From an uncultured delta proteobacterium (GTDB taxonomy: Bacteria; Desulfobacterota; Desulfomonilia; Desulfomonilales; Desulfomonilaceae), in the NCBI GenBank assembly GCA_963789265.1, contig CAWBKB010000001.1:1280001-1344000 (forward strand): a DNA stretch of 64,000 bases. Direction: 5' to 3'. Position 1 is the first letter of the stretch; each line of letters starts with the position of its first letter. The notes below the pieces were generated by a model, which saw nothing but the letters and a program-made list of their open reading frames with translations, was not told the origin of the DNA and did no database searches. The position numbers and the translations under genes were made by a program. This document shows positions 10,348 through 46,786 of the stretch, piece after piece.

Positions 10348-11460
10348 CTATTCTCCTGTAGCCGCGGCGACCATTGCCCGAACATTATCCAATTTGGCAT
10401 TGACCGGAATATCGCAGCCCGAATGTAAGATGAATCCCTCGGGTCCCAATGTTTCGATGAGTTTGGTGCAATATTCGTGGACGGCATCCGGTGAACCCAT
10501 GCTCAGCATAGTGGCCGGCACATCGCCCATCAGACACATATGATCTCCGAGCAGTTCCTTAGCCTTGAAAAGGTCTGTTTGACCGTCTGTCGCCATGATG
10601 CATTTTCCTTTGGGCAGCTCTCTGAAGCGGGCCAGATCGCGGGTCCAATTGGCATCCAGATGTAAAATGGCCACCAGTCCGCGGTCGATGACATCATTGA
10701 CCATCTTGCTATAGTATGGCCAAACAAAACGGTCCCACAGTTTGGGCGACAGCATCTGGCTGGCCGATCGCCAGCCGCCCAACCATATACCCGTGTAACC
10801 GCCATTCACGCTAATGTCCAGAAACGGGCCGTACACATGGGGTGCAATCAAATCCATGACCGCTTGAACTTTGTCAGGGATTGTAAACAGGTCGTGGATG
10901 AATTTGGTCATGGAGCGTCCGCCGCAGAGCATTTCAAAGGGTGAAGACAGGGGAACACCGGCAGTGAGCACTGGAATCCCCAGGGGATCACAGACCGTTT
11001 TTGCATCAAAGGGTGGTTGGTTGAAAGGCAAAAGCTCTGGAGCCACGTCGTTGAAGACACGGTTGTGCATATAATCTTCATAAAACTCAGGCCAGCCTTT
11101 GTCCAAGATCGTGTCATAGTCTTCGATCTTCATCAATTCCGATTCAGCCACCTGATAGGGCACGTCATGGTCCAGTTCCTTGCCGGGAATTTTGACCTTC
11201 GAAAGCCACAATTGGCTCAACCCGTAGGTGGCAAACCCCAGGTAGTCGGTGCCGTCGGCATCGCCGCACAGCTCATAGGTCTTGATCATCGCTTCGGCCG
11301 AATTGACGACGGATGCACAGAAATCTCCGAATGGCATTCCCACCGTTTTGGCGGCAAACAGTGCGTAAAGCAGAACCACAGGAGTTCGGTCAGGCTTCTC
11401 CAGTGCAATAGCTTTTCGGATGCGAGCCATTCTCTCCTTCAGAAGGTCAGCTTTGTTCAT
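10348..11460 (-). CDS. UroD/MtaA-family methyltransferase (candidate O-demethylase MT1)
   Basis: R..KAIALEKPDRTPV, LSPKLWDRFVWPY, ILHLDAN, CLMGDVP, GFILHSGCDIP; start overlaps the corrinoid gene stop. Confidence 0.85.
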   Translation of the reverse strand: MNKADLLKERMARIRKAIALEKPDRTPVVLLYALFAAKTVGMPFGDFCASVVNSAEAMIKTYELCGDADGTDYLGFATYGLSQLWLSKVKIPGKELDHDVPYQVAESELMKIEDYDTILDKGWPEFYEDYMHNRVFNDVAPELLPFNQPPFDAKTVCDPLGIPVLTAGVPLSSPFEMLCGGRSMTKFIHDLFTIPDKVQAVMDLIAPHVYGPFLDISVNGGYTGIWLGGWRSASQMLSPKLWDRFVWPYYSKMVNDVIDRGLVAILHLDANWTRDLARFRELPKGKCIMATDGQTDLFKAKELLGDHMCLMGDVPATMLSMGSPDAVHEYCTKLIETLGPEGFILHSGCDIPVNAKLDNVRAMVAAATGE

Positions 11461-12110
11461 GTCGATCCTCCAGCCAATTTCTGAGCTGTGATCACGGCCG
11501 AGTTGGCATCCGGGCAAAAAGCGTCCGCTCCTACATACTTGCAGGCATCCGCTGTGATGGCGGCACCTCCGATCATGATGGACAAGTCTGTACGCAATCC
11601 CGCGTTTTGTATGGCATCCACGGTCCCCTTGAGGCTTTCGAATGCCGAGGTCAGCAAACAGGATAGGCCCACCACTGAGGGGTGATGAGTCTTGATTGCC
11701 TCCATGAAAGCTTCGGCCGGCTGATCCACGCCGAGATCCACTACTTTAAATCCCTGGCAACCCAAGAGATTAGCGACAATGTCCTTGCCAATGTCGTGGA
11801 TGTCTCCTTTCACCGTGCCAATCACATACGTACCGTACTTGGAATCACTTTCATCCTCGGCACTCATGCGCTTCTTCACGCCTTCCACCGCCTGCTTGAA
11901 GATAGTCGCCGACATGATGAGCTCGGACAAAAAGTAGTTCTCCGCTTCATACTCTTCGCCGACCTGCCGCATGCCGTCCTGGAGGGCGGCAAGAATCTTT
12001 ATGGGATCGGCTCCCTGCTCGTTGAGCCGTCGCACCTCGGAAAGCACGGCGGCTTCATCCAAGTTCTTCATGAAAGTGGTAAGCTGGACCATATTGACCT
12101 CATGTCTCAT
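11457..12110 (-). CDS. Corrinoid (cobalamin-binding) methyl-carrier protein
   Basis: B12 cap domain (GMRQVGEEYE..YFLSEL) plus GTVKGDIHDIGK (DxHxxG), SCLL and GGA motifs. Confidence 0.93.
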   Translation of the reverse strand: MRHEVNMVQLTTFMKNLDEAAVLSEVRRLNEQGADPIKILAALQDGMRQVGEEYEAENYFLSELIMSATIFKQAVEGVKKRMSAEDESDSKYGTYVIGTVKGDIHDIGKDIVANLLGCQGFKVVDLGVDQPAEAFMEAIKTHHPSVVGLSCLLTSAFESLKGTVDAIQNAGLRTDLSIMIGGAAITADACKYVGADAFCPDANSAVITAQKLAGGST

Positions 12111-12140
12111 CTGATGGACCCCGGGAAAGCTTGAGCTCGC

Positions 12141-13424
12141 CTATGAAATGGGAACTAAGCTTCCTGCAGCAGGAATCTCGGGATGCTCGCGATTGTAAAC
12201 AACGGTAACCTCCCAGGGCCATTTCTTACCCTTGCGCCATTGGCCGCCGACTACCGGTGTGCGGCAGTAATTGTCTTTATTGAATTGGATATGCCCCACC
12301 ATGGTCTTCAGGTTGGTCGCAGCGATGTTCTTGCGCAAGACTTCCTTGTTCAGACTTCCGGAGCGCTTGAGTACATCCGCTGCGATTTCGTAGGCTGCGT
12401 ACTCATATCCCAAGGGTTGGGTCCAACATTTGCCCGCGCCCTTTTCATAGGCGTCGCACAACTCCTTGGCGCTGTAGCCTGTCAGGGAGGAGGAATACGG
12501 ATGATCCGGACTCCACCAAACCTCAGTGCTGATACCCTCGGCCAAGTTCCCGCCCATGGCGTCCATAGCCGACGGAAAGAGGCACGCTCTGCCAATGGTG
12601 GCCACCTTGGGTTTGTATCCCATCTGGAAGCATTGGCGCCAACAGGAGATCCAGTCGGGTGGGCTGGTATTTCCCACGATGATGTCGACATTTTCTTTGC
12701 GCCACTTGTCAATATATGCGCTATAGTCCTTGGCCCCGGGTTGGAACATTCCCTCATCGATCACAGTATACCCTTTGGGCCCCAACAGGTGCTTGAAAGT
12801 ATTGTACCAGGGAATGCCGCCCGGGTCAGAGGCGAAGAACAAGCCGACCTTTTTATTGGTGGGCACCTGCTCCCACATTCCTGTATAGATCGGTACAATA
12901 TCATCCACCACTGTCCAGAAGCTCAAAAATGCCCACTTGTGGGGGGCATTTTCGATAAAGGAATCCAGGGGAGAGTCCAGCGCAATGCACGGCATCTGAT
13001 AGCGTTCGCAAACAGATGTCACCGGGTCCACGGTGGTAGGCGCATGTAACACTACCATCAAATCTACTTTATCTCCGAGGATGAGCTTAGAGGCCATCTC
13101 GGCAGCAGTGTTGGGATCGCTCTGTGTATCCGCCACCTTGACCTTAACCGGAAGTTTTTTCCCAGCCGCTTTGATGAAGATGCCGCCGTCGCGGTTGATC
13201 TCCCCGACCACTCGTTTGGTCAGCCACATCGTGGGTTCTCCGAATGGCGCCAGGGGACCGGTCAAGGGGCTTGGCTGACCAATCAGAATATAATCGCGCT
13301 GGGCCGCCGCTGCTGTTCCGACTAATCGGGGCGACAGCATTGCAACACCGGCGGTGGCCGCACCAGCGGCTAGTTGTTTGATAAACCTTCTTCGATCGAT
13401 ACCGCTGCCTCTTTTCATCTGCAA
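12141..13424 (-). CDS. ABC substrate-binding protein (Leu/Ile/Val-binding fold) with Tat signal
   Basis: N-terminal DRRRFIK twin-arginine motif; PLTGPLAPFG and DTQSDP motifs. Confidence 0.88.
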   Translation of the reverse strand: MQMKRGSGIDRRRFIKQLAAGAATAGVAMLSPRLVGTAAAAQRDYILIGQPSPLTGPLAPFGEPTMWLTKRVVGEINRDGGIFIKAAGKKLPVKVKVADTQSDPNTAAEMASKLILGDKVDLMVVLHAPTTVDPVTSVCERYQMPCIALDSPLDSFIENAPHKWAFLSFWTVVDDIVPIYTGMWEQVPTNKKVGLFFASDPGGIPWYNTFKHLLGPKGYTVIDEGMFQPGAKDYSAYIDKWRKENVDIIVGNTSPPDWISCWRQCFQMGYKPKVATIGRACLFPSAMDAMGGNLAEGISTEVWWSPDHPYSSSLTGYSAKELCDAYEKGAGKCWTQPLGYEYAAYEIAADVLKRSGSLNKEVLRKNIAATNLKTMVGHIQFNKDNYCRTPVVGGQWRKGKKWPWEVTVVYNREHPEIPAAGSLVPIS

Positions 13425-13468
13425 CTCCTTTCGCTGCGTGTGGGGTTATGGACGGACGATCCGCCAAA

Positions 13469-14410
13469 CTACATCCTTCGGGGCGATAGAAACTCGAACC
13501 CGATTTTTTCCTGAACCGTACCCATGATACCTTTGGGCATCAGCAGCATGATCACTACGCTAACCGTGCCTAAAATTATCATGCTGATGCTTGCGTACTC
13601 CGCTAAATACTGCTGAAATAGGACGAAGATCAGCGCACCGATAATGGGCCCTTCAATGGTTCCAATGCCGCCAATGATGACGATGAAACACAGATTGACG
13701 GTCCATCCAATGTCAAACGCTTTGTAAGGTTGAATATAGACTTGGTTGAGGAATAGAACGCCGGAAGTGATTCCGGTGACGCAAGCGGCAATCAAGAAGC
13801 AAAGCAACTTAGAGCGGAAGATATTGATACCGATGCTCCGACAAACCCCTACATCGTCGCGCATGGCCATCAGACTGAGTCCCAGGCGGGAACGCAGCAG
13901 TAAATAGACCAGCGCGACCGAGCCGATGCCCATGCAGATCGCCATGTAGTAGATCTGGTTGATGGAAAGGGTATAGGCCGCCTTAATGAAAACGCCCGAA
14001 CCTTTTTTGGTAAGGTCCCAGTTGGAAAACCAGATCATCAGAGCTTCGGCCACAATCCAGGAGCCGATGGCAAAATAGACGCCGCTCATGCGAAAGATGG
14101 GCACAGAGATGATCAGGGCAAAGAGGACGCTCACCAGGCCGCCCGTTATGATGCTCAGCCAAATCGGCCAGTGGAAATTGAGGGTCATAATCGCCAAGGT
14201 GTAGCCGCCCAGGCCGATAAAGATCTGCTGACCCAATGAGATCAGTCCGGAATATCCGGCCAAAAGGTTCCACATTTGGGCAAGAGCCAAATAGAGCCCA
14301 AAGATCATAAATACGAGGACAAAGTATTGCGAACTCCAGAGGGGCAAAGTGAACAACGCTCCAAGAATCGCTAGAATCGCCACAAAACGCCAATATTGGG
14401 CCATCATCAT
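13469..14410 (-). CDS. ABC permease (LivM-like)
   Basis: WNLLAGYSGLISLGQ and IIGGIGTIEGPIIGA motifs. Confidence 0.9.
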   Translation of the reverse strand: MMMAQYWRFVAILAILGALFTLPLWSSQYFVLVFMIFGLYLALAQMWNLLAGYSGLISLGQQIFIGLGGYTLAIMTLNFHWPIWLSIITGGLVSVLFALIISVPIFRMSGVYFAIGSWIVAEALMIWFSNWDLTKKGSGVFIKAAYTLSINQIYYMAICMGIGSVALVYLLLRSRLGLSLMAMRDDVGVCRSIGINIFRSKLLCFLIAACVTGITSGVLFLNQVYIQPYKAFDIGWTVNLCFIVIIGGIGTIEGPIIGALIFVLFQQYLAEYASISMIILGTVSVVIMLLMPKGIMGTVQEKIGFEFLSPRRM

Positions 14411-14411
14411 T

Positions 14412-15284
14412 TCATGCCACCCTCTCTGCCTTGCCGAATAAGCCCTGGGGCCGAATTGTTAGCACGGTGAGCAAGATCAAATATCCGGATAGAAGCTGAT
14501 ACCCGGGTCCCAAGAAATGTGCTCCCAAGACCTGGGCCAGTCCCAGGATCACCCCGCCCACAAGAGTGCCGACCAAGGAACCCACACCGCCGATGATGAC
14601 CACGCCGAAGGCGATAATGAGATATTGGGGGCCAGTATGAGGGAAAAAGGTAAAGGTAGTCCCCACCATCACGCCCGCCACGGACGCAGTCAGCATGGAA
14701 AGGCCCATGGCGTAGGCGAAGACGCGGTGGGTGTCGACTCCCATGAATTGTGCAGCTTCAGCATCGTCGGAGGCTGCCCGAATGGCCAGACCGAGGTAGT
14801 TGTAGCGGAAAAAGAGAAGTATCCCTCCGATGACAATCAGGCCTATCACACAGCCCACGAGGTAGATGACCGGTATGCCGCAATTTTTCGAAACATAGAT
14901 GCTTTTGACCGCAAGAGAAGTCGATAGGGATCGGGCATCAGGGGAAAAGATCGTCAGCAGGGCATTCTGAAGAATAATGGACACACCAAAGGCAACGATC
15001 AGAGGAGGTTCCATGCCCTTGTCCAGCACCCGGTTGAGGATGAATATTTGCAGCAGGACTCCAACAGCAAACATTACCGGGATAACCATTACCAGGGCTA
15101 GGTAGGGGGAGATGCCAAACTCCGTTGCTAAAACCAGGGTAAGGTAGCTTGCGAGGATCATCAAGTCGCCGTGGGCCAGATTGACCAGACGCATGATACC
15201 GAAGATCATGGATAGGCCGACCCCCACGGTGGCATAGATGATGCCAAGCAGAATGCCGTTAATCAAAGGCTGAATGAGGTCCAC
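14412..15284 (-). CDS. ABC permease (LivH-like)
   Basis: GLSMIFGIMRLVNLAHGD, GLAIRAASDD, RPQGLFG. Confidence 0.9.
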   Translation of the reverse strand: MDLIQPLINGILLGIIYATVGVGLSMIFGIMRLVNLAHGDLMILASYLTLVLATEFGISPYLALVMVIPVMFAVGVLLQIFILNRVLDKGMEPPLIVAFGVSIILQNALLTIFSPDARSLSTSLAVKSIYVSKNCGIPVIYLVGCVIGLIVIGGILLFFRYNYLGLAIRAASDDAEAAQFMGVDTHRVFAYAMGLSMLTASVAGVMVGTTFTFFPHTGPQYLIIAFGVVIIGGVGSLVGTLVGGVILGLAQVLGAHFLGPGYQLLSGYLILLTVLTIRPQGLFGKAERVA

Positions 15285-15302
15285 GTAACACCTCGCGTCA
15301 AA

Positions 15303-16019
15303 TTAAAGACCAAAATAGGCTTTCTTAACAGCCTCTTCGGTCAAATTCTTCGGATCGCCCTGCAAAGCAACCTTGCCTTCCTGCATGACAAAGGCCCAAT
15401 CCGCTGCCTTCAAGCTTCTCTGGATATCCTGCTCAACCAGAATCAGAGTGACGCCCTCGCCGTTGATCTCCTTGAGTTTGCTGTAGATATTATTAATGAT
15501 CACCGGAGCCAAGCCGAGGGAAATCTCATCGAATAGGATCAGACGGGGCTCGGACATCAAGGCGCGTCCTATGGCAAGCATCTGCTGTTCCCCACCGCTC
15601 AAGTTTGTTCCCAATTGATTAATTCGTTCCATCAGGCGAGGAAACAACTGGCACACCTTTTCAAGATTCTGCTTTCGATTTTTACGGGCCCTCATCGCAT
15701 AGGCCCCAATCAGCAGGTTTTCCCGCACGGTCAGGCGCTGAAAGATGCGGCGCCCTTCCGGTACCAGGGCCAGGCCGTTTGCCAAAGTCTGGTACGGGGT
15801 CAAAGAGGTGATCATCTCTCCTCGGAAAACCACCTGGCCACGGCTGGGTTGCAAAGCGCCCGCGATAGTTTTCAGCAGGGTCGATTTGCCGGCGCCGTTG
15901 GCGCCGATGATTGAAACCGTGCTGCCCGCGGCGACATTCAGAGAGACATCCCAAATGGCTTGAAATTCACCGTAGTGTACATCCAACTGATGGACGCTCA
16001 GGACAGATTCCGATCCCAT
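15303..16019 (-). CDS. ABC ATPase (LivF-like)
   Basis: GANGAGKST, VPEGRRIF, LSGGEQQM. Confidence 0.92.
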   Translation of the reverse strand: MGSESVLSVHQLDVHYGEFQAIWDVSLNVAAGSTVSIIGANGAGKSTLLKTIAGALQPSRGQVVFRGEMITSLTPYQTLANGLALVPEGRRIFQRLTVRENLLIGAYAMRARKNRKQNLEKVCQLFPRLMERINQLGTNLSGGEQQMLAIGRALMSEPRLILFDEISLGLAPVIINNIYSKLKEINGEGVTLILVEQDIQRSLKAADWAFVMQEGKVALQGDPKNLTEEAVKKAYFGL

Positions 16020-16741
16020 CAGCCCTCCTGAATTCCTAGGTAGCACTGTAATACTTCTTTGGCGTTCATGACCTCCTGGGGACCCCCGCAGATAAGCATT
16101 CCACCTTGATCCAGGGCCAGGATTCGATCCACTCCACTCATCATCATGAGAATGTGTTCAATCCACACCACAGTCACCCCGTTGTCTCGAATCTGATGGA
16201 CGATTTCGAGGACTTGTCGTGATTCCGCTTCAGTCAACCCGGCGGCAACCTCGTCCAGAAGCAGTAAAGAGGGCTTCGTGGCCATTGCACGGGCCAGTTC
16301 CAGACGCTTACGATCCAACAATCGCAAGGTCCTGGCAAAATGGTGACGACAGTTGCTAAGGCCGGTAAAGACCAAGATTTGGTCCGCTTCGATGCGGGCC
16401 CTTTTTTCGGTAAGACCGCCCCCGTGTGTCGCGGCCACCAACAAATTTTCCAGAACGGTCATATTGCCGAAGGGCCGCGGAATCTGGTAGGTTCGGCCAA
16501 TACCCTTCCTGGAACGCTGGTCAGCCGAACTCTTCGTGATATCGCTACCTTCAAAATAGATTTTGCCTCGGTCCGGTGGATAGACACCGGTTAAGACATT
16601 GAAAAGGGTGGTCTTGCCCGAACCATTAGGCCCCAGTATGCCCAGAATCTCCCCCTGCCTTACGTCCATCGTGAGACCGGTGAGTGCTTGAACCTTTCCG
16701 AAGGCCTTTGCCAGGTTTTCCGTTTTCAGTAGCTCCGTCAT
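16019..16741 (-). CDS. ABC ATPase (LivG-like)
   Basis: GPNGSGKTT, RTYQIPRPF, LLLDEVAAG. Confidence 0.92.
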   Translation of the reverse strand: MTELLKTENLAKAFGKVQALTGLTMDVRQGEILGILGPNGSGKTTLFNVLTGVYPPDRGKIYFEGSDITKSSADQRSRKGIGRTYQIPRPFGNMTVLENLLVAATHGGGLTEKRARIEADQILVFTGLSNCRHHFARTLRLLDRKRLELARAMATKPSLLLLDEVAAGLTEAESRQVLEIVHQIRDNGVTVVWIEHILMMMSGVDRILALDQGGMLICGGPQEVMNAKEVLQCYLGIQEG

Positions 16742-18886
16742 TGCCTATTCTCGCTGTCAGCGCTCGATGCCCTGTAAATCTTACACAATACACCCCTGAG
16801 GGGCTCTGCTCCGATATCCGGGTCATAGTCCATGTCCCCGTAGAGCACGTTAAGATTTGATCTTTGCCATCCGTAATCCGGCGGTCCTTCCTCCGGGAAC
16901 CACCAGCCGGGCTGGGCACCGATAACGTCTCTGCGAATGTCCCGGGTCAGCTTGGCACGTTGAGTCATTCTCCCCTCGGATGTTTCGATCCAAATCCAAT
17001 CATCGTCTGAGATCCCGTAGTGCCCTGCTGTGTCAGGATGCAGGTACACCACCGGGTCCGGGTGGCGGCGACGCAAGCGTTGGATCTGACGCCCCTCACT
17101 GAGGAAAAATTCTTGAATGCGACCCGAAGCTGTTAATATCAATGGATACTGTGCAAGAAGTTTCGGTGTTGACAGGGGACTGATCGCCGGTTCCCTGTAG
17201 ATCGGCAAAGGTTCCACATTAATGGTTTTCAAAGCTTCCGAATAAAACTCGAATTTTCCCGAAGGAGTGGCAAAACCGTATTCCCGATATTTGTAGTAAC
17301 GTTGCTCCGCCTGGACTATACCTTTGCGGCAGAATTCTTCGAAATCCATTCCGCTGGGCGCTAGGACCCAGTTGAGGTAGTCCCGGTAATCTCTCCAGGG
17401 AAATGCGTCGGCAAGTCCCAGACGCTGGGCCATTTCAAGCAGCACCGAACGGTCGGCACGGGTTTCTCCTATCTGGGCCAGCTTGGGCCGTGCCAGGATG
17501 CACCAGATTTTATGCAGGCAGGCCACATCTTCGGTTTCGAGCCAAGAGGCTGCGGGCAGTACCAGATCTGCCATTTGAGCGGTGGGAGTCATAAAAAGAT
17601 CCGACACCACGACAAACTTCAGTAGACCCAAAGCTTTCTTGACTTCATGGACATGAGTGGCGGTGATCATCGGATTGGAGCCTACGATCCATAGAGCCTC
17701 CATCCGGTAAGGCCGGGCCGAAATGATGGACTGCCAAAAAGAGGGTTCCTGTATTCCAGGATTCAAGGGGAATCGGTCGGCATCGATACTACGCTCCCTT
17801 TTTTGCGGTGGAAGAAAGGCAGCACCTGACAGCGAGGGTTCGTGCCACGGTGATTTTCGAAACACCGGTGCCGGCGCTATCCACAGGGCGTCCCCGCCGG
17901 GGCGGTCAATATTGCCTGTCAGGGCGCTCAGAGTCAGAATGGCCCGTGCGGTCTGAAAACTGCCAGCGGTTCATATCCAGCGCATGGCCCCACTGGATGC
18001 AGGCTGGTCGAGTACTGGCATAAGTTCGGGTTGCCTGGCGGATCAGGTCCGTCTCAATGCCGGTTATCCTTGAGGCCCATTCGGGACTAAATTGACGCAC
18101 ATGGGCCTTCAGGGCGTCAAAGCCCAGCGTATGCTCGCGTACAAATTCATGGTCAATCAAATCTTCTTCCATCAACAAATGGATCATCGCAAGAGCCAGG
18201 GCCCCGTCCGTCCCCGGCCGGATTTGGAGAAAGTGAGTGGCCTTGCGGGCCGGGCCGTTGCGTATCGGGTCCACCACGATAACTTTTTCAGCCGTTTTAA
18301 GGGCACGCTTCACCATGCCGCCGCACATGCCGTCAGCAGCGCCGCTTTCGGTAACGTTACAGCCCCAGATCAGCACGCAGGCCGGCCGCTGCCCTCCGAA
18401 ACCGTAGACATCGGCCACAGGCAGTTGGCCGCAAGAGTAGCGAGAAGCCATCTGTCGTGCAAGGTAGCAAAAATGGAGGGGTTCGGTCATATTGGGTGTG
18501 CCGAAGGCGTTGGCGAAGCGTGCCACAAAGCCCGAATAGGCGCGCCCCGTACCCTGCATCATTCCCAGATATTCACTTTTTCCGGCCTTGCGCAAGGCGT
18601 CGAATTTTTCCGTCATCTCGGTCAAGGCTTCTTCCCACGAGATGGGGGTCCATTCGTTGGCCCCGCGCTGGCCGCGGCGACGCAGCGGGCGGGTCAGGCG
18701 GTCCGGGTGATAGAGCAAATCCACAGACGCGGCGCCCTTGGTGCACAGATATCCCCGACTGGTGGGGCTTTCGGGATCGCCGGTGATCTTGACGACCTTT
18801 TGGCCTTTCAGATGGACCTGAACCTGGCACACACCATGGCACATCCGACAGGCCGAGGTGACCGATTCTATGCTGTTTTTCATCAT
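16738..18886 (-). CDS. Bis-MGD Mo/W enzyme of the acetylene-hydratase-like clade; split by a +1 frameshift near 17956-17964
   Basis: N-terminal CRMCHGVC...C [4Fe-4S] motif, PGTDGALAL, DLFMTPTAQMADLVLPA, TPSGKFE, C-terminal molydop-binding domain; the repaired join reads FQTARAILTLSALTGNIDRPGG; ~715 aa. Confidence 0.85.
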
Positions 18887-18916
18887 CTTCTCCAACTCAA
18901 GCGGAAGAACCGCCGT

Positions 18917-20774: not shown

Positions 20775-20789
20775 GCCAATCCTTCTCTT

Positions 20790-21569
20790 CTAGCCCGCGG
20801 AGTAGCCACCATCCACGTTGAGAATTGCTCCGGTCATAAAATCTGAGGCCTTGGACGACAGATAGATCAGGGTACCAAGAAAGTCTTCGGGTTCGCCCAA
20901 TCGGCCTACGGGGATTCTTTTGAGGAAATTCAGATAGAATGCCTTGTCGTCGAACATCCATTGGGTCAAGGCGGTGCGGAAGACAGTGGGAGCTATGGCG
21001 TTGACATTGATTTTGTGCGGTCCCCATTCGCACCCCAAGGTTTTGGCCAAAAGATGAATGGCCCCTTTGGAGGGACTGTAGGCCGAGTAGTTGGCCATGC
21101 CCAGTTCGCCTCGCGCTGAACCAAGCAGCACCACTTTGCCGCCGCGGCCCTGGGCGATCATGACCTTGCCAACCTCTTTGCAGAAGAGATAGGTGCCCTT
21201 AACATTGGCATCCATGATCATTTCCCATTCTTCAAGCGGCTGCTGGACGATGGGGCCGGGTTTGTTGACGCCGGCGGCAGTGATAAGAATGTCGATGCCT
21301 CCGAAGGTGCTCAGAGTATCGGCTACGATTTTGGCTACGGCAACTGGGTCTGTGGGAGGCCCGGCCGAGAAAGCCGCCGTACCTCCGGCAGCTTCTATTT
21401 CGGCTATCAGGGATTTCAAGGTCTCTGGACTGCGGCCGGTCGCCATTATTTTTACACCGCTGGTTGCCAGTCCCAGACAGGCGGCTTTGCCGAATCCGCC
21501 CGTGGCACCGGTAATCAGGGCAACCTTGCCGGACACATCAAACAGAGCGCTTATTTCGTCCTTATTCAT
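20790..21569 (-). CDS. SDR; candidate phloroglucinol reductase
   Basis: TGATGGFG and YSPSK (YxxxK); segments LFDVSGKVALITGATG, GGKVVL.GSAR, PTVFR..LT.WMFD, NFLKRIPVGRLGEPEDF match my recollection of characterised phloroglucinol reductases. Confidence 0.8.
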   Translation of the reverse strand: MNKDEISALFDVSGKVALITGATGGFGKAACLGLATSGVKIMATGRSPETLKSLIAEIEAAGGTAAFSAGPPTDPVAVAKIVADTLSTFGGIDILITAAGVNKPGPIVQQPLEEWEMIMDANVKGTYLFCKEVGKVMIAQGRGGKVVLLGSARGELGMANYSAYSPSKGAIHLLAKTLGCEWGPHKINVNAIAPTVFRTALTQWMFDDKAFYLNFLKRIPVGRLGEPEDFLGTLIYLSSKASDFMTGAILNVDGGYSAG

Positions 21570-21608
21570 GCTTCAACCTCGTGAGGGTTTGCTGTGTGAT
21601 CTTTGCTA

Positions 21609-21953
21609 TCAATCCGGATAATTGATGATTACCAGCATGCTGGCCGGCCTGGGCGTCTTATTTATCACGCTACGCCCCTCATTGGGGCCTAAATAAAGGG
21701 CATCCCACTGCCTCAAAACGTGCTCTTCGGTGCTGCTCTTGACGGTGATTTCCCCTTCCAGCACAAAGTAGATTTTCTCCAAGGGGTTGTCTTCGTAAGC
21801 CCACTCCGCACCGCCGCCCGGCAAAAAATGGGAGAGACCCATCCAGAATTTCTGCGCCCCGGTCTCTTCCTTGCCGATCAAGCGCATCGCGGTCATATTG
21901 AAATGCTTTGGAGCTCCATACGGCTTAACATCCTTAAGTTCCACCTTTTTCAT
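21609..21953 (-). CDS. Small cupin protein
   Basis: SHFLPGGGAE...EKIYFVLEGEITV cupin barrel; ATG 21953. Confidence 0.85.
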   Translation of the reverse strand: MKKVELKDVKPYGAPKHFNMTAMRLIGKEETGAQKFWMGLSHFLPGGGAEWAYEDNPLEKIYFVLEGEITVKSSTEEHVLRQWDALYLGPNEGRSVINKTPRPASMLVIINYPD

Positions 21954-22038
21954 GCTTTCTTCGCCCCTTTCGCTAAAATTGGTCCGATGAGGTTCGGCGT
22001 GGCGAGGTTTACCCCGCCTGTGGCTCTCTAGATCTTTA

Positions 22039-23408
22039 TCACTGCCTTGAAAAGCTGTACTCATCCTGAACAAGCAGGATTGCGAGGGCAGCGACCAGAA
22101 CCGGGTACGGCCAAACCCATGAAGTTGACAAATAGTGACACCTTTATATGGATCAAAACGCCGGCCAGCGTCGGGCCAAAGATGGCACCCAGCCGACCGA
22201 TGCCGAAAGCGAAGCCCATCGCTGTGGATCGCATGGCCGGCGGATAGAATAGGGACACATAGCTGTTAGCCAGATTTTGCCCGGCAAAGTAACCGGTACC
22301 CGCCATGGCAACCAGAGTCGCCAACAAATAGAAATCTCTAGTTTGACTCAACAAAGCTATTGAGGCAAAGGCCGTCAAAAAACAAACAGCCAGCGTCGGC
22401 TTGGAGCCGCAACGGTCAGCAATTACCCCGGCAATCTGGCTTCCAAATAAAGCGGCCAGTTGAAGAATTAGCAAGAACAATAGCCCTGATCCCAGAGCAA
22501 AGCCGGCATTCATCATCAGTTTCGGCAACCAAATGCCAAGCCCGAAGATCATGTACATATTCATGAAAAACATGATCCAGAAACAGGATCGTGCTGAACC
22601 CACGGTGTTCACGAAAAAGATCAATAATCGGCGCCCTGCCCGAGCCTTTATCAATGTCAAAAGTTACATCGTCCGGGAAGGGCTCTGCCGGCCGTGCTCT
22701 CCTCAGGATTGCTTTCAATTCCGCAACACGGCCCTCAGCAATTAGACGAGTTGGAGATTCGGGCAGCATCTTCACATATACGGGTAGCAGAAGCAGCGGA
22801 AGAGCACCCAAGTAAAATACCGATCGCCAGCCGAACAAGGGGAAGAGCCATATACTGAAACCGGCGGCAGCTATGCCGCCGACTTGCATACCCGAAAAGA
22901 TCGCCGCAATCATCAGAGCCCGGTTCCTGAGAGGAGCGTACTCCGACGCCAAGGCGACTATGTTGGGCATGACCCCTCCAATTCCTAAGCCTGCGCAAAA
23001 ACGGCACAATCCAAACGTGCCGGGACCATGGGTCGTACCTGTCAACCCGGTGGCCAGGCTGAGCACAGCGACGCAGATGATGACGGCCACCTTTCGGCCG
23101 ATCTTATCCGCCAGCGAACCGAATATCAGTGCGCCTACCGCGGCTCCGATCAACGCATAACTGCCGATGACGCCGGCCTGGGTCGGGTTAATCCCAAACT
23201 CCTTCAGAAGTACAGGAACAGCCGCCCCGTAAATGACCAAGTCATAACCATCGAAGGTGATGATGCAAACTGACAACAAGAACAGGTACGCATGAAAGCT
23301 GGAAAACTTACTCTCATCGAGCCATTTGTTGACGTTCAAAACTGTGCATGTCGATGGGGGGCCGGCTTTTAATAGCCTGAGGTTCCCGGCCATCGTTTGT
23401 CCCTCCAT
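22039..23408 (-). CDS. Aromatic acid:H+ symporter MFS (BenK/PcaK-like); two +1 frameshifts (~22582, ~22099)
   Basis: FDGYDL, GSLADKIGRK, GLGIGG.MPN..AL.SEYAP, LPESP, YP..MRSTAMG..GIGRLGAI; repaired C-terminus VPGLVAALAILLVQDEYSFSRQ*. Confidence 0.85.
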
Positions 23409-23526
23409 CTTTTTTCCTTCGATGAGCGAATTCACGCGAGTTTCGATCTTGGGCGATGACTTGCCGTATATTCTCGAGGCGGCCGGCACGCAGCTATCTG
23501 CCGTGAAAGCAGAGGCATGTCATTGC

Positions 23527-24543
23527 TCATTCCACCGGGAAGTCTACAAACTTGCCGTTCTTCAGGTACCCTGCCTTCTCATACAGGTCGAACTGCGGAG
23601 GGGTGGCGCAACCGCTAGCGTTCATCGGACCGAGAGCGTCTTTGTGGTTTCCAGTCCCGTGTTTGACTAGCGCTGGAGCATAGAGAATGTCGCCGATCTC
23701 CGCTTCGATCCACCGGCTTTCCAAATAAGCCATACCCGGGGCGTCCCAGAAAATGATAGCGTCCTCTGATATGGGATGAACATGAGGTTTAAAGGCAATC
23801 CCCGGCAAATGGCAGGCATTGTGTAGCCCACAGTTTTTGGCCCCCACGCCGGGCCATACGATGAACTTCATGGCTCCGCCGTACCCATGGAAGGGAGCGC
23901 CGCGGTAAATGTTGAAGACCCCGCCCTTCCGAGCAACTTCGCTGTAACCGATCGCTTCCGCTCTGTATCTCCCACCCAGCTCGTTGGCCCTCATCACGCA
24001 TTCCCGCGGAATGGTGTCAGGCACCATGTTGAGCATCAGTTTGTCAACATCTTCGACTTTGAATTCGCCGTTCTGCATTAAGCCGATTTCCTGGTAAAAC
24101 TCTAGAGGAGAAGGGCAGATGTAAGCTAAGGCAACAAAATCTTCTTTGGAATTTGGAGCGCAGCGGGTACCAAACGGGACTCCCATGGGCACGAAAATGA
24201 CGTTGCCGGCCTCGATTCTTTCCCAGCCCGCCTCACCGAGATTGACTTCCCCAGCCCCCCGGATGCAGGTCATGCTCACTTCGGATATGACGCGAATCTG
24301 TGTGTCGAACTTACCGCCAGGCTTGTGAATAAGCAGGTGGAAGGAGACCATGCGTGTGCCTACGGCGGGCCAGCCGATAAGCCGGGTGATGCAACCCTTT
24401 CCGTTCTCGATGTCCAGGCCCTCGTTGATGTTGAAGATAGCCCCTCGAGTGCGAATCTCATCACGAGTGCGGTTATACGCGCGGGCAGGATCGTCTCTAA
24501 GCAGTGGAATTTGCACCTGAGTCTCCTCTAACATGCCTGTCAT
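23527..24543 (-). CDS. Bicupin of unknown function (start ATG 24543 or upstream TTG 24756)
   Basis: Internal duplication (GAIFNI...GWPAVG versus GGVFNI...VWPGVG); C-domain has HVHPISE...KHG metal ligands. Confidence 0.75.
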   Translation of the reverse strand: MTGMLEETQVQIPLLRDDPARAYNRTRDEIRTRGAIFNINEGLDIENGKGCITRLIGWPAVGTRMVSFHLLIHKPGGKFDTQIRVISEVSMTCIRGAGEVNLGEAGWERIEAGNVIFVPMGVPFGTRCAPNSKEDFVALAYICPSPLEFYQEIGLMQNGEFKVEDVDKLMLNMVPDTIPRECVMRANELGGRYRAEAIGYSEVARKGGVFNIYRGAPFHGYGGAMKFIVWPGVGAKNCGLHNACHLPGIAFKPHVHPISEDAIIFWDAPGMAYLESRWIEAEIGDILYAPALVKHGTGNHKDALGPMNASGCATPPQFDLYEKAGYLKNGKFVDFPVE

Positions 24544-24787
24544 GCCGAGGAAGGAGTTCCTCCTCGCTGAAAAAAACCAGGCAATCTTGCCGTAATCGGA
24601 ACCGTCAAGACGTAAGGATCCGTCCGCCGTTGCGAAAATCCGCGAGCCAGATGTGCGCATCAACGGAAGAACACTGGAGCATCGCCGGTCATCTTTCCTT
24701 GCCGTCTCAAGCGAATGGAAAAACAATGCATTCTGCACCGGGGCGGTCGTTGACAACGCCGCCCCTTGAAAAGATCACCCGAATAAG

Positions 24788-25552
24788 TTAGTCCTCTTCT
24801 TCCAAAATGGCCACCAGGCGCACGATGGACCCGTCCCCTTTCTGCCAGCGGATGGGAAAGCCCGAGATGGTCACTCGTTTTCCGACGACCTGCTCCAAAT
24901 CGCCGCCAACGTTTTCCCATCCCATGATGCCGTTGCGCAACAGCAAGTTGTGGCACGGTTCCCAATACGGGAAATCTTCCTTCACCTCCCGGCCGGTCTC
25001 TCGTTTGTACTCTTCGCAAATGTCGGGCCTGAGGGGTCCTCCAGGGCCATGGGGGCCGATAGCCGTTCCCAGTGGATGATCCAGGGCCTGCTGATCCACG
25101 CCCACTGCTTTGACGCCCTTCTGAACAAACCACTCTCCGGCTTCTTTATACAGGCCCGGTGAGTAGCAGAAGTATTCCGTACTGTCGCCCCACTTTTTGT
25201 GCCAACCGGTATGAACGATAACGATATCGTCCTTTTCGATCTTGGGACGTGCGTTTTCCAGATCCTCAGCGGTGATGACGCCCCATTTACCCTTCGGAAT
25301 GTCAACAACCACACCGGTGCCGTAGTATTTTTCCAAAGGAATCTCATCGGTATACTGACCCCCTTCGAACACATGGGCCGGGGAGTCCGCATGAGTGGTG
25401 CAGTGCATGGTGGTGGTAATCACCTGGGAAAGGACCCCGGATTTGGCGTGGTAATGCATGCGTTCGATCTTGACATCCTGAAAATAGGGCCATAGCGGGC
25501 ATTTGTCCCCAAAGGGCTGACTGAGATCGACCAATCTAATCTTCTTGCTCAT
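24788..25552 (-). CDS. Cyclase (kynurenine formamidase-like) family; candidate dihydrophloroglucinol cyclohydrolase
   Basis: DLSQP, HCTTHADSPAH (HxGTHxDxPxH variant), QALDHPL, WEPCH, ENVGGDL, GDGSIVR; GAGGAGG RBS. Confidence 0.85.
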   Translation of the reverse strand: MSKKIRLVDLSQPFGDKCPLWPYFQDVKIERMHYHAKSGVLSQVITTTMHCTTHADSPAHVFEGGQYTDEIPLEKYYGTGVVVDIPKGKWGVITAEDLENARPKIEKDDIVIVHTGWHKKWGDSTEYFCYSPGLYKEAGEWFVQKGVKAVGVDQQALDHPLGTAIGPHGPGGPLRPDICEEYKRETGREVKEDFPYWEPCHNLLLRNGIMGWENVGGDLEQVVGKRVTISGFPIRWQKGDGSIVRLVAILEEED

Positions 25553-25607
25553 CGCTGTCGCCTCCTCTTTGCTTCGCATATTTTGGGTCGTCGTTTGGTT
25601 GAGGGGC

Positions 25608-25964
25608 CTACTCCTCAATTAGTGTTTTAGAGAGATCTTGCTCATCGTCCCTGAGTTTAACCACGAGATCAAAATCAGAGATGGCAGAGACGCTGTAAAA
25701 CCGCATGCTGGGTCTTTCGACGGCCATGTCCATAACGGCCAGGATGCCACGGAAATCAGCCGAACAAATGTGACGCTTTAGATGTTCGAAGGAATCCCAT
25801 TGCTCAAAAAGGATGAATTCGTTGTCGCATTTGACATCGATCCAGAGTTTGAAATGCCGACAGCCGGGCTGCACCGAAATCGGACCAAGGATGGTGTCAA
25901 AGATGCGCAAGGCTTCTTGAACCTTTGACTGAATCAAGCGCATGCGCAGAATCATCATGTTCAT
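25608..25964 (-). CDS. Antibiotic biosynthesis monooxygenase (ABM/Dabb) domain protein
   Basis: QPGC..F...FILFEQWDS..HLKRHI.S pattern; start placed downstream of the sigma-54 promoter. Confidence 0.75.
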   Translation of the reverse strand: MNMMILRMRLIQSKVQEALRIFDTILGPISVQPGCRHFKLWIDVKCDNEFILFEQWDSFEHLKRHICSADFRGILAVMDMAVERPSMRFYSVSAISDFDLVVKLRDDEQDLSKTLIEE

Positions 25965-26028
25965 GAGAATGCCTGCTGGTTTGTGATATTTCGACATTAA
26001 TTTGATTAAGGTCAGTGACCAATCTTGT

Positions 26029-26044
26029 AACAATAAGCGTGCCA
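26029..26044 (-). promoter_or_regulatory. Sigma-54 -24/-12 promoter of the catabolic operon
   Basis: Minus strand TGGCACGCTTATTGTT: exact TGGCACG -24 box and correctly spaced TTGT (consensus TTGC); adjacent to a sigma-54 activator gene. Confidence 0.65.
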
Positions 26045-26203
26045 TATTGGGTCGACAGGTATCTTGCGATCGTAACATAGTGAAAAGAAATAGTTAAACT
26101 CTATTTGTTCGTATTCGCCAGAGGGCACGATGGAGAAAGAAACTAACGCCATTCCGCTAAGCTAACGAAATAGCGACAAAGAGAGGTGCCGGCCCATGAT
26201 GGG

Positions 26204-28069
26204 TCAGCGCCAAGTCGATGGGGATGAATCCAGTCGGACAATGTTCAATTTTTGCATTTTAGATCGCAGGGTGGACACCTTCAAGCCCAGTAGCCGAGCA
26301 GCTCCTCCGGGGCCGGAAATACGACCTCGAGACTTTCTTAGGGTGTGGAGAATATGATTGCGGATGACATCGTCCAGGAGCTGTTCGTCAGTCTGGATAC
26401 AGTCTTCGGTCTCAAGCAGTCCCACGGTCAATGTGTCACCACTGGTAAGAATCATTGCTCTTTCGATCACATTGCGCAACTGACGGACATTTCCCGGCCA
26501 GTCCTGAGCCTTGAGTAATTCCATGGTTTTGTTGGGGATATATTTTATGGATTTACCCATGCTTTGGGAAAATTCTTTCACAAAGGCCCACACCAGTAAG
26601 GGGATGTCTTCCTGACGCTCTCTTAAAGTCGGCATGGTGATGGGAAAGACATTGAGGCGGTAGTAGAGATCTCGCCGAAACTTCTTTAATTTAACCTGAT
26701 CTGCCAGATTGGAATTGGTGGCGGCAATCACTCGCACATCCACGGAGATGGTTTGTGCGCTGCCCAAGCGCTCAAAGCGATGGTCTTGGAGTACGCTTAA
26801 TAATTTGGCCTGAAGGTCGAGAGGCAAGTCCCCGATTTCGTCCAAGAAGAGGGTCGATTGGTTGGCGGCCTCAAAACGTCCGATTTGTTTGGCGGTGGCA
26901 CCGGTAAAAGCCCCTTTTTCGCGACCGAACAGTTCACCTTCGATTAACGTGGCGGGCAGTGCGGCACAATTGACTTTGATCATTGAGCGACCTTTGCGCG
27001 GGCTCATATTATGAATAGCCCGGGCCAAAATCTCCTTTCCGGTGCCCGTTTCTCCCAAAATGAGCACGCAGGTATCTTTTCCGGCAACTTTTTCTGCGGC
27101 TGCCAGAACCTTCTTTATGGGCAGGGTTTCACCTACAATATCCTCATGCCGGTAGCGGACCTCAATCTCCTCCCGTAAAAAGGTATTCTCCTGCTCCAGT
27201 TGATTTTTCAATTTCCGGATTTCTTCAAGGGCACTTTTCAGCTTGTTTTCCGCTCGCTTGCGTTCGGTCACGTCCCGCGTCAAGGATAACAGGAGGGACT
27301 GGTTAAGGAAATCAAGCCGGCTCAAGCGGACTTCCACCGGGAAGGTGCGCCCATCTTTTCGCCGTTGGGTACCCTCGAAGGTGATATATTCTCCCGAAGC
27401 GAGCCGTTCCCAAAAGCGGTTGCGATGCCTACTTTGAGAAACTTCCAAATCGATGTCAGCGATATTCATCTTCAAGAGTTCGTGCCGGTCGTATCCCAGG
27501 CTTCGACACGCCTCCTGATTGACATCGTAGATATGACCGGCATAGTCGTGGACAAAGAAGGCATCACCGGCTTGTTCTACCAATGTCCGAAATCGGCTTT
27601 CACTTTCGTGCAGGGTAGCTTCGGCTTTTTTCGATGCCGTGATATCCTGAACAAAGCCTTCACTGACTATGTGGCCATCGGCGGTTTTTGCGGGGTGTGC
27701 GCTGATGCTGATCCAGATCGTCTCCCCGTCCATGCGCTTGGCTTGGGCTTCGACTGAATCGACAAACCCGCGGCTGCTCATTTCCGCCACCATGAGATGA
27801 CGATCCTCTGGATGGACCCACAGCTCGCGGGCGTTGGTCACCGATGCCAGGAAAGCCTTTTCGGATTCGTAACCGAATATTTCGGCCATTTTTCGATTCA
27901 CCCAATGAAATTGGCCTTGCAGGGTCACTCGGAAGACCCCCAGGACTGCATGGGCAACTAAATCTTTCCATAGCTTTGCTTCTGAAGATAACTGCGCATT
28001 GCTGCTAAGTAGTCGGTTATTTTCCTCTTTCAGCCGCTTGATCTCTTCAGTCATAGTAAACGAACCCAT
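26204..28069 (-). CDS. Sigma-54-dependent activator with two PAS domains, AAA+ and Fis HTH
   Basis: GETGTGKE, GAFTGA, LFLDEIGD, DLYYRL, WPGNVRQL; PAS/PAC DIT..K and DVTERK. Confidence 0.95.
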   Translation of the reverse strand: MGSFTMTEEIKRLKEENNRLLSSNAQLSSEAKLWKDLVAHAVLGVFRVTLQGQFHWVNRKMAEIFGYESEKAFLASVTNARELWVHPEDRHLMVAEMSSRGFVDSVEAQAKRMDGETIWISISAHPAKTADGHIVSEGFVQDITASKKAEATLHESESRFRTLVEQAGDAFFVHDYAGHIYDVNQEACRSLGYDRHELLKMNIADIDLEVSQSRHRNRFWERLASGEYITFEGTQRRKDGRTFPVEVRLSRLDFLNQSLLLSLTRDVTERKRAENKLKSALEEIRKLKNQLEQENTFLREEIEVRYRHEDIVGETLPIKKVLAAAEKVAGKDTCVLILGETGTGKEILARAIHNMSPRKGRSMIKVNCAALPATLIEGELFGREKGAFTGATAKQIGRFEAANQSTLFLDEIGDLPLDLQAKLLSVLQDHRFERLGSAQTISVDVRVIAATNSNLADQVKLKKFRRDLYYRLNVFPITMPTLRERQEDIPLLVWAFVKEFSQSMGKSIKYIPNKTMELLKAQDWPGNVRQLRNVIERAMILTSGDTLTVGLLETEDCIQTDEQLLDDVIRNHILHTLRKSRGRISGPGGAARLLGLKVSTLRSKMQKLNIVRLDSSPSTWR

Positions 28070-29008: not shown

Positions 29009-29057
29009 GCTACGGCACCAGAATACGAGACCGTATTTGCGAAAAGGAGTACTTAGT

Positions 29058-41282: not shown

Positions 41283-41630
41283 AGTGACAGCCCTCTATCG
41301 TTTCTCAGGCAGATCTATGCGTGTCCCATCTTCGGCGATGATCACTCGAATCAAGAAGCCTTCTTGCACGGCCTCGAGACACAAATCCTCACTCACCGGA
41401 AACCGGTCCCAGGTCTGTTCCAGGCATGAGATGACATAGTACGGATCAAAGGCTTGATTCGGGCCTGTGTCCCCTCCACAGGGGTCGCGTGCTTCTCTCA
41501 AAACAGGGGCCCGTGGCAACCTATGGCATTGATCTCAGCTACAATCCTTCAGGGCCTCCTTGAACTAAATCGACGGAGCGGAACTGATAACGGTCTCAAC
41601 AGGTTCACCACTCCCGCCTGCGGCCACCAA

Positions 41631-42989: not shown

Positions 42990-43010
42990 TGCTCTTCTCC
43001 TTTCTTGTAG

Positions 43011-44018: not shown

Positions 44019-44051
44019 GGTTCACCTCCATTCGCCATACATACGAGATCG

Positions 44052-45599: not shown

Positions 45600-45611
45600 C
45601 TCTTCCCCTTT

Positions 45612-46775: not shown

Positions 46776-46786
46776 TACGCTTCTCC

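Follow-up and report, generated by a model that had tools for sequence, protein, structure and literature searches.

A probable sigma-54-controlled gene block for phloroglucinol catabolism, with candidate accessory genes, in a Desulfomonilaceae bacterium

What is the function of a long run of co-directional genes in which the enzymes of anaerobic phloroglucinol degradation stand together with a bicupin, a molybdenum or tungsten (Mo/W) enzyme, an importer and a corrinoid methyltransferase? The run occupies positions 10348-28069 of a stretch of 64,000 nucleotides from an uncultured delta proteobacterium (assembly GCA_963789265.1, contig CAWBKB010000001.1, positions 1,280,001 to 1,344,000), and this whole stretch is called the window below. 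Unless a plus sign is given, all window features below are on the minus strand. Phloroglucinol is the hub of anaerobic flavonoid and tannin mineralisation in peat, sediments and guts. To our knowledge, outside the Pelobacter-type transhydroxylase, no genes have been assigned in strict anaerobes to trihydroxybenzoate decarboxylation, to the shift of ring hydroxyls or to ring demethylation. We read the block, from its sequence and from its relatives, as a sigma-54-controlled catabolic unit for phloroglucinol and probably for some substituted relatives of it, and we give this reading a probability of about 0.6. The core of the unit is known, also from sulfate reducers; the accessory set is the new part.

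The core can be named with the greatest assurance. In Clostridium scatologenes, phloroglucinol is degraded by a phloroglucinol reductase (PGR), a dihydrophloroglucinol cyclohydrolase (DPGC), an (S)-3-hydroxy-5-oxohexanoate dehydrogenase (TfD, or HOHDH) and a triacetate acetoacetate-lyase (TAL), according to the consulted portions of Zhou et al. 2023 (PMC10470551). The window carries a counterpart of each. The PGR gene (20790-21569), which is present in a single copy in the genome, encodes a short-chain dehydrogenase/reductase (SDR) that matches PDB entry 5g4k at 1.2e-67, with the next entry at 1.6e-45. We take 5g4k to be the structure of a Clostridium PGR; the molecule name of the entry says only SDR. 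The DPGC (24788-25618) belongs to the cyclase family (PF04199, 8e-37), among solved structures it is closest to kynurenine formamidase and isatin hydrolase, and orthologues 78-86% identical to it adjoin PGR elsewhere. The TfD/HOHDH (19839-20774) consists of the domains 3HCDH_N and 3HCDH. The putative TAL (18917-19846) is a member of the BKACE family (PF05853, 7e-98), and its best NCBIfam model is that for 3,5-dioxohexanoate (triacetate), NF053538, which it matches over the full length with 388.9 bits, below the cut-off of 430. We also compared the translations by eye with the tryptic peptides of the C. scatologenes enzymes that are printed in the supplement of PMC10470551, as far as the consulted part of it goes. 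The identical residues were 10/14 and 9/14 for two peptides of CsPGR, 13/23 for a peptide of CsDPGC (the stretch GGDL..V.GK included), 19/20, 11/12 and 13/14 for three peptides of CsTfD, and 11/23 for a peptide of CsTAL.

These figures bear directly on the alternative that the core genes serve another beta-keto-acid pathway, such as lysine fermentation, carnitine breakdown or the use of sugar acids. It is true that the SDR also matches gluconate and KduD-type models, that the dehydrogenase matches models of 3-hydroxybutyryl-CoA dehydrogenase and the BKACE protein the lysine Kce model, and that TAL stays just under the NCBIfam equivalog cut-off. However, the Kce model reaches only 249.7 bits, 139 below the triacetate-specific one, the PGR-type structure is ahead of all sugar-acid SDRs by 22 orders of magnitude, and one peptide of the assayed CsTfD is identical in all but one residue. 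The gene set and its order also agree with the characterised cluster, as far as the consulted portions of its description show. Because of these structure, model and peptide matches, a carnitine, lysine or sugar-acid role of the core is very unlikely. The earlier note on this DNA had listed the same four enzymes (SDR, cyclase, 3-hydroxyacyl-CoA-dehydrogenase-like protein and BKACE) as a phloroglucinol pathway and had named clustering with carnitine, lysine or sugar-acid enzymes as the outcome that would overturn it; the assignment stands, and the matches given above run against that outcome. We are thus highly confident, on sequence grounds, that the core genes encode the route of anaerobic phloroglucinol degradation that has already been published. 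PGR would reduce phloroglucinol with NADPH, DPGC would open the ring of dihydrophloroglucinol, TfD/HOHDH would oxidise 3-hydroxy-5-oxohexanoate to triacetate, and TAL would convert triacetate and acetyl-CoA to acetoacetate and acetoacetyl-CoA.

When the block is compared with the C. scatologenes cluster, as described in the consulted portions of PMC10470551, the same four enzyme families are found in both, and an MFS transporter and a regulator are nearby there too. The differences are that the window has a sigma-54/PAS regulator, that it has no thiolase, CoA-transferase or butyrate genes in the block, and that it has in addition an ABC importer, a bicupin, an ABM-domain protein, a Mo/W enzyme and a pair of corrinoid protein and methyltransferase. 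The hosts also differ, with a Desulfomonilaceae bacterium here and a fermenting Firmicute there. The core cluster itself has already been reported in sulfate-reducing bacteria and archaea in the same source. On the side of the cyclohydrolase, a second cyclase subtype, 40-48% identical to the window DPGC, accompanies PGR in some other clusters (L148, L151, L153, L154, L156, L067, L076, L079 and L080); in the surroundings of the L079 PGR, neither subtype is present or both are distant. CsDPGC has 312 residues according to the consulted part of PMC10470551.

The layout of the block is that of an operon over most of its length. All family-supported open reading frames (ORFs) of at least 150 amino acids in 10348-28069 lie on the minus strand, and the flanking genes, for a TPR protein (9327-9968, +) and a TetR regulator (29037-29777, +), lie on the other strand, so that the limits of the block are as stated. 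From 5' to 3', an activator gene is followed by a hairpin and a -24/-12 box, and then by the genes for the ABM protein, DPGC, the bicupin, a major facilitator superfamily (MFS) transporter, a small cupin, PGR, HOHDH, TAL, the Mo/W enzyme, two ABC ATPases, two permeases, a periplasmic solute-binding protein (SBP) with a twin-arginine (Tat) signal, the corrinoid protein and the methyltransferase (MT). HOHDH and TAL overlap by 8 nt and the Mo/W gene and the first ATPase by 4 nt, which agrees with the overlapping stop and start codons remarked upon before, and the two permeases are 1 nt apart. The remaining gaps measure 15-44 nt, apart from two longer ones: the small cupin gene follows that of the MFS at a distance of about 105 nt, and a spacer of about 245 nt parts the bicupin gene from DPGC. 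From the bicupin through the MT, all junctions are overlapping or 1-105 nt long, and a promoter scan of this part gave no internal promoter that stands out. The tally is thus one activator and 16 genes behind the promoter, 17 altogether; the earlier note had counted 17 co-directional genes after the activator, and their shared strand is borne out. Mechanical ORF calling gives 18, because two genes, those of the MFS and of the Mo/W enzyme, are split.

Both splits are one-base assembly errors. The MFS gene is broken into 22416-23489 and 22061-22660, with stop-to-stop frames that overlap by 248 nt, and the Mo/W gene into 17906-18895 and 16738-17865, with an overlap of 65 nt. Contigs derived from the reads of soil metagenomes (two runs of one study, with a depth of 3.5-5.3, which may be the source sample) are one base shorter than the window at 22581, 17963 and 22099, and the first two of these positions each fall within a zone of frame overlap. 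By frame arithmetic, the removal of one base gives a single ORF in either gene, and the read-through of the Mo/W gene agrees with a 708-aa orthologue of 83% identity. A programmed frameshift and a pseudogene were considered for the split genes and rejected because of the bases lacking in these contigs. The genome has 6.06 Mb in nine contigs at 95.6% completeness. Further split genes are a methylmalonyl-CoA mutase in the window (31821-32597 and 32560-33417, +) and two BKACE paralogues elsewhere in the genome (G000, C1:2281952-2282837 and C5:578894-579728); together with the nine contigs, they are consistent with a long-read assembly that is prone to indels.

The components expected for sigma-54 control are all present, namely an activator of the bacterial enhancer-binding type with its AAA+ domain, a -24/-12 box before the first gene, and rpoN in the same genome. 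The activator (26204-28069) has two PAS domains (PAS_9 in two stretches), the AAA+ domain (PF00158, 6e-68) and HTH_8, and a hairpin lies 3' of its stop at 26147-26175. The box TGGCACGCTTATTGT (26030-26044) was found by pattern match as TGGCAC-N5-TTGT, with TTGT at the -12 element where the consensus is TTGC. Six matches of the -24/-12 pattern were counted in the window against 4.3 expected, which alone is not significant. Nevertheless, the same variant recurs at L158:8420-8434, in genome G219, between DPGC and an activator orthologue of 53% identity upstream of it, and it is the sole match in that 20-kb locus; beside the 39% identical activator of L155, no -24/-12 box was found. The earlier claim of a PAS-type sigma-54 activator with its box is borne out by these observations. 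The activator would sense an aromatic signal and fire the -24/-12 promoter. Since the box lies inside the longest ORF call of the first gene, which reaches 26078, this gene must start later, and we place the ABM-domain protein of about 118 aa (Pfam ABM, 1.1e-8) at 25608-25964 with an inferred start. The Atlas returned only generic ABM clusters for it.

The host is placed by its MnmG, which is 86% identical to that of a Desulfomonilaceae metagenome-assembled genome (MAG) and 76-77% identical to those of Desulfomonile tiedjei MAGs, in agreement with the earlier proposal of a Desulfobacterota-like host. Of 70 genomes of the order, 2 have a PGR orthologue; none turned up in six further genomes of the same genus (76-98% complete), and in a sample of 401 genomes from the phylum there were 16 with one; the phloroglucinol cluster is therefore patchy in this lineage. 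For the accessory genes, a comparison set of 95 other loci was used, comprising 80 metagenome loci found through PGR and 15 genome loci from the phylum, and all operon proteins were searched in them by tblastn. The usual unit in these loci is DPGC, small cupin, PGR and TfD, often with TAL. The exact gene combination of the window is idiosyncratic.

A conserved companion of PGR in this set is the small cupin (window 21609-21953, about 114 aa), which is without the canonical histidine metal triad. Of the 72 loci with room for it, 59 have it no more than 2 kb upstream of PGR, namely 47 of the 57 metagenome loci and 12 of the 15 genomes. The residues Y12, H17, Y62 and N98 are invariant, D84, E92 and R94 are nearly so, and the model of the protein is closest to the Mn cupin TM1459. 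The C. scatologenes cluster has such a gene too, alike by size, family and position: in the consulted parts of PMC10470551, the 113-aa Cupin_2 protein CSCA_1081 adjoins CsPGR (CSCA_1082) and CsDPGC (CSCA_1083) by locus tag and was detected in gel-band proteomics, and the main text of that paper never mentions a cupin. Possibly the small cupin is a fifth pathway component that has gone unnoticed.

The bicupin (23527-24540) is a different protein of about 324-337 aa; its ORF call of 409 aa is too long, as homologues have about 324. The family is rare. A word-indexed search gave 37 matches, a profile search against 1.84 billion representatives gave 35 at E<=1e-30, many of them fragments, and among genomes scanned at one per species there were 14 close orthologues (54-74% identity). 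Their hosts are Syntrophorhabdales, Syntrophales, Syntrophobacterales, Desulfovibrionaceae, Bacillota/Clostridia, Bryobacterales and one bin labelled Brachybacterium. Core genes occur in five of the 14 loci (L008, L009, L018, L019 and L020), and in a sixth, L011 of genome G464, the core shares the strand of the bicupin at a distance of 12 kb. PGR of at least 54% identity is carried by 10 of the 14 genomes, to be compared with the 16 PGR-bearing genomes in the phylum sample of 401; two of the others have a PGR of 43-48% identity and two have none. Seen from the side of PGR, the bicupin is present in 2 of the 95 loci (L109 and L110). An Amidohydro_2 gene adjoins the bicupin in L007, L016 and L017, genes of TRAP or TTT transporters are common neighbours, and in both L011 and L012 the order is AthL, BthL, FmdE, SBP, bicupin and ABC system. 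In the window, the next gene encodes an MFS transporter of the aromatic acid:H+ symporter (AAHS) family (22061-23489; one gene, TIGR00895 positions 2-255 and 244-398 on its two pieces), and orthologues of it follow the bicupin directly in L013 (59% identity) and L015 (52%) as well.

Two side observations concern the bicupin loci. L011 and L168, both on contig C30 of G464, form a supercluster of about 25 kb on one strand, which is a second extended phloroglucinol block with a bicupin; the order is ABC, DPGC, cupin, PGR, TfD, a stretch of 5.8 kb, AthL, BthL, FmdE, SBP, bicupin and ABC. FmdE-like genes with a treble-clef zinc finger lie beside the bicupin and the transhydroxylase at L009:6906-7478, L011:8343-8825 and L012:7750-8379.

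The family consensus of the bicupin has the motif HxHx4E...H, that is, three histidines and one glutamate, in both cupins. The window copy keeps it in the C-terminal cupin, and its N-terminal site is degenerate. A PDB sequence search gave no match at E<=1. When the AlphaFold model (pLDDT 93.6) is compared by structure, bacterial and fungal quercetin 2,3-dioxygenases fill ranks 1-7 with Z from 23.9 to 22.3, and the next relative has 21.3. YxaG (PDB 1y3t; Z 23.9, 268 aligned residues, root-mean-square deviation 3.1) and the fungal quercetinase (1juh; Z 22.8) are bicupins too, so a quercetinase-type fold with a His/Glu metal site is present, in the C-terminal cupin. This likeness in the model suggests that the enzyme may act on a ring of the phloroglucinol type, and the neighbouring transporters, which are of the carboxylate type, make a small aromatic acid a plausible substrate. 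In our reading, the bicupin would turn an imported aromatic carboxylate, such as a trihydroxybenzoate or an acid derived from a flavonol, into phloroglucinol or a precursor of it. We give even odds to a role of the bicupin in a phloroglucinol-forming step.

Could the bicupin instead be what its structural relatives are, an O2-dependent flavonol (quercetin-type) 2,4-dioxygenase at oxic-anoxic interfaces, whose depside product leads through phloroglucinol carboxylate to phloroglucinol? The structural ranks favour this, as do the 3His-1Glu motif in both domains of the consensus and the L007 bicupin, which is near genes of C-glycoside deglycosidases and an Amidohydro_2 gene. Quercetinase products lead into phloroglucinol chemistry as well. 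On the other hand, the identity between quercetinases and the window bicupin is only 10-14%, the N-terminal site is lost in the window copy, and the hosts belong mostly to lineages of strict anaerobes (Syntrophorhabdales, Syntrophales, Desulfovibrionaceae and Clostridia). The adjacent transporters (AAHS-type MFS, TRAP and TTT) are of the carboxylate type and so point to a small aromatic acid rather than a flavonol, and the family scan found no esterase in the operon. We consider such a dioxygenase improbable.

The importer encoded in the second half of the block had been described before as a Tat-SBP ABC importer, and all of its parts were found. It is of the Liv type (13469-16741) with ATPases at 16019-16741 and 15303-16046 and permeases at 14412-15284 and 13469-14410, and the SBP (12141-13424), assigned by family scans to Peripla_BP_6, has the twin-arginine signal IDRRRFIK. 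A Liv permease of at least 40% identity is present in 10 of the 29 metagenome loci of at least 12 kb and in 3 of the 12 long genome loci from the phylum, and in L070, L079, L090, L106 and L137 the core has ABC orthologues with 56-64% identity at its side. Judged by this recurrence, the importer probably serves the phloroglucinol pathway. It and the aromatic-acid MFS would import the substrates.

The last two genes encode a corrinoid protein (11457-12110; B12-binding and B12-binding_2 domains, TIGR02370 4.8e-44) and an MT of the URO-D/MtaA family (10348-11517, start uncertain; PF01208 1.3e-27), so the pair named in the earlier note is present. MT orthologues occur in 8 of the 401 phylum genomes, and three of these eight also carry PGR. 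G360 also has the pair, with 53% identity for the corrinoid protein and 56% for the MT; it shares the strand of the core and is encoded about 10 kb upstream of it, with other genes between. For the MT, the Atlas gave generic URO-D clusters only, and among solved structures it is related only to CdmB of the chloromethane system (3e-17, in the C-terminal half). A corrinoid protein with an MT of the URO-D family is likewise the make-up of CdmBCA (consulted portions of PMC13222342) and of the aryl O-demethylases of acetogens. Such demethylases also have a second methyltransferase and an activator in the same cluster; the family scans found a single methyltransferase in the block, no methyl-corrinoid:tetrahydrofolate methyltransferase and no activator. 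The genome does have activators of the RACE/RACo type at other places (C1:2229852 and C7:207544), and further methyltransferase genes lie close to them. The pair would take methyl groups off methoxylated trihydroxybenzenes, with the activator and the second methyltransferase encoded elsewhere. On this sequence evidence, we hold the O-demethylation of methoxylated trihydroxybenzenes as a tentative assignment, at slightly less than even odds.

The Mo/W enzyme (16738-18895, one gene with the error at 17963) is a cytoplasmic, acetylene-hydratase-like protein of about 705 aa that would bind a bis-molybdopterin guanine dinucleotide cofactor and has an N-terminal [4Fe-4S] cluster, no Tat signal and no neighbouring FeS subunit. 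Full-length homologues of about 705 aa are many in Desulfobacterota metagenomes, and none is functionally named. For the orthologue of 83% identity, acetylene hydratase is the best match (6.9e-93, nearly end to end), followed by PsrA (3.7e-82), while PsrA is ahead of acetylene hydratase when the N-terminal half of the window protein is used alone; the former label of the acetylene hydratase clade is roughly right. The motifs are C-x2-C-x3-C...C and LHFC, with Cys at the position of the metal ligand. Acetylene hydratase (PDB 2e7z) is likewise a cytoplasmic single-subunit enzyme with an Fe4S4 domain and a Cys ligand. After the second cluster Cys, the window protein and P0038 have His (C-x2-C-H), where acetylene hydratase has Asp, presumably the catalytic Asp13. 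We therefore did not file the enzyme as an acetylene hydratase. Acetylene hydratase is coordinated by Cys and transhydroxylase by Ser (PMC10100899). Catechol dehydroxylases are the closest kin of acetylene hydratase and occur in aromatic-degrading anaerobes including Desulfomonile, according to the consulted portions of PMC7028382.

What ties the Mo/W enzyme to the pathway is mainly its place. Its gene begins 21 nt downstream of TAL and shares 4 nt with that of the ABC ATPase, and the slot directly downstream of TAL is the one in which relatives of the block have another gene of the MopB family, the AthL/BthL pyrogallol-phloroglucinol transhydroxylase of the Pelobacter acidigallici type. AthL/BthL adjoin the core in 16 of the 80 metagenome loci and 4 of the 15 genomes, and they follow TAL directly in L073, L082 and L090, as Pfam confirmed. 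Further phloroglucinol clusters with AthL/BthL are L102-L104, L106, L108, L116-L118, L147, L150, L154, L156 and others, and many of these clusters are on uncultured contigs of the Desulfobacterota type. The window enzyme is not a transhydroxylase of this kind. That enzyme has about 950-1000 aa, an AhtL-like N-terminal domain (PF21423), no Fe4S4 domain and an FeS beta subunit encoded next to it, and the window enzyme has about 705 aa and the Fe4S4 domain (PF04879); PF21423 is absent from it, there is no gene for a beta subunit, and its identity to AthL of L102 and L012 is 22-24%. No PF21423 match was found in the whole genome (95.6% complete) and none in the named control genomes either, the absence being backed solely by the clear matches of the model in other loci. 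Among the loci compared, an enzyme of about 705 aa of the Fe4S4 type directly after TAL is found only in the window and in L087. By analogy with the transhydroxylase, the enzyme would move, add or remove a ring hydroxyl to give phloroglucinol. That it forms phloroglucinol from another hydroxybenzene is a conjecture from sequence and position which we regard as doubtful.

In the same genome, 18 matches to the MopB family were counted, two of them with an in-frame TGA (probable selenocysteine), which makes a very large Mo/W set. L162 carries a Mo orthologue of 63% identity beside a set of old yellow enzyme, Amidohydro_2 and CoA ligase genes similar to window 41631-45599. The latter is part of a second catabolic block in the window (40452-49239), which consists of an SDR, a reductase of the old-yellow-enzyme type, Amidohydro_2, a CoA ligase, an acyl-CoA dehydrogenase, a ChsH2-like hydratase and a thiolase-like protein. 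Still further on, at 50813-53470, the window encodes a protein of 885 aa in which HEAT repeats are combined with a cyclic-nucleotide-binding domain at the C-terminus.

How far do the accessory genes then belong to one unit with the core? A different account is that the block is a mosaic, in which a plain phloroglucinol operon of core, small cupin and ABC importer stands beside co-directional genes for other substrates, and the Mo/W enzyme, the corrinoid/MT pair, the ABM protein and perhaps the bicupin and MFS serve unrelated pathways. A number of observations speak for the mosaic or otherwise weigh against the reading as a single unit. Within the 95 other PGR loci, no homologue of the ABM protein, no counterpart of the window MFS or MT and no close Mo orthologue (at least 56% identity) was found, and the corrinoid protein stands beside PGR once (L082, 41% identity). 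The bicupin and MFS also stand as a pair by themselves, in L013 with no core gene for about 10 kb around and in L015 with none on the short contig of 6.6 kb. Close Mo orthologues, present in 6 of the 401 phylum genomes (two of the six with PGR), are solitary in varied contexts, a 65% identical paralogue lies among housekeeping genes in the same genome, and across five orthologue loci and this paralogue no recurring neighbour was found; the family is therefore not specific to the pathway. The L087 enzyme was rejected as a specific orthologue, since its identity to the window enzyme, 41-42%, is no higher than that to two other paralogues (43% and 40%). The spacer of about 245 nt separates ABM and DPGC from the rest, and at its start, behind the stop codon of DPGC, there is a GC-rich hairpin with a U-rich tract after it (24715-24790), so that a single transcript is not assured; with -24.5 kcal/mol and a z of -1.76 the hairpin is weak, and it is possibly an attenuator or a partial terminator. 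The degenerate N-terminal site of the bicupin belongs here as well, and so does the need of its nearest structural relatives for O2, which a strict anaerobe lacks. The MT weighs on this side too, its one solved relative being a chloromethane methyltransferase. Lastly, the co-occurrence counts are small and come from related genomes that are not independent.

Against the mosaic, the genes from the bicupin to the MT are joined by the short or overlapping junctions described above with no standout promoter among them, the Mo/W gene sits between two units linked to the pathway, and the bicupin and MT co-occur with PGR at the level of genomes far above background. We consider the mosaic unlikely, though not negligible, and keep to the catabolic unit for phloroglucinol and probably some substituted relatives. 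The neighbourhood survey that the earlier note had proposed divides the accessory genes along similar lines: the small cupin, the ABC importer and the bicupin recur with the core, and the ABM protein, MFS and MT do not in the 95 loci. The comparative data thus support a link of the bicupin and the ABC importer to phloroglucinol metabolism, and more weakly one of the corrinoid/MT pair and the Mo/W enzyme. The funnel of that note, from methoxylated or carboxylated trihydroxybenzenes into phloroglucinol, is plausible. The comparison lends it some support where the bicupin, the corrinoid/MT pair, the importer and the place of the Mo gene are concerned; the ABM protein, the MFS and the Mo enzyme of the window itself are not conserved with the core in the 95 loci. 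A bolder version, in which the Mo/W enzyme is a new single-subunit phloroglucinol-forming enzyme in place of the transhydroxylase (by isomerisation of pyrogallol or hydroxyhydroquinone, or by dehydroxylation of 1,2,3,5-tetrahydroxybenzene) and makes, with an O2-independent trihydroxybenzoate bicupin and an O-demethylase, a funnel of three arms, with the small cupin as fifth component, strikes us as distinctly unlikely.

It had also been supposed that the arrangement was not described. This does not hold for the core cluster, which PMC10470551, in the portions consulted, places in sulfate reducers; for the accessory set, no published account was found in the literature searched, and the genome-neighbourhood tables of that paper may already list cupin or Mo genes. 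The block and its relatives name candidates for the decarboxylation, hydroxyl-shift and demethylation steps, namely the bicupin, whose family is tied to genes of PGR, transhydroxylase and Amidohydro_2, together with the Mo/W enzyme, the corrinoid/MT pair and the small cupin. The characterisation of these candidates would allow a better annotation of polyphenol turnover in anoxic soils.

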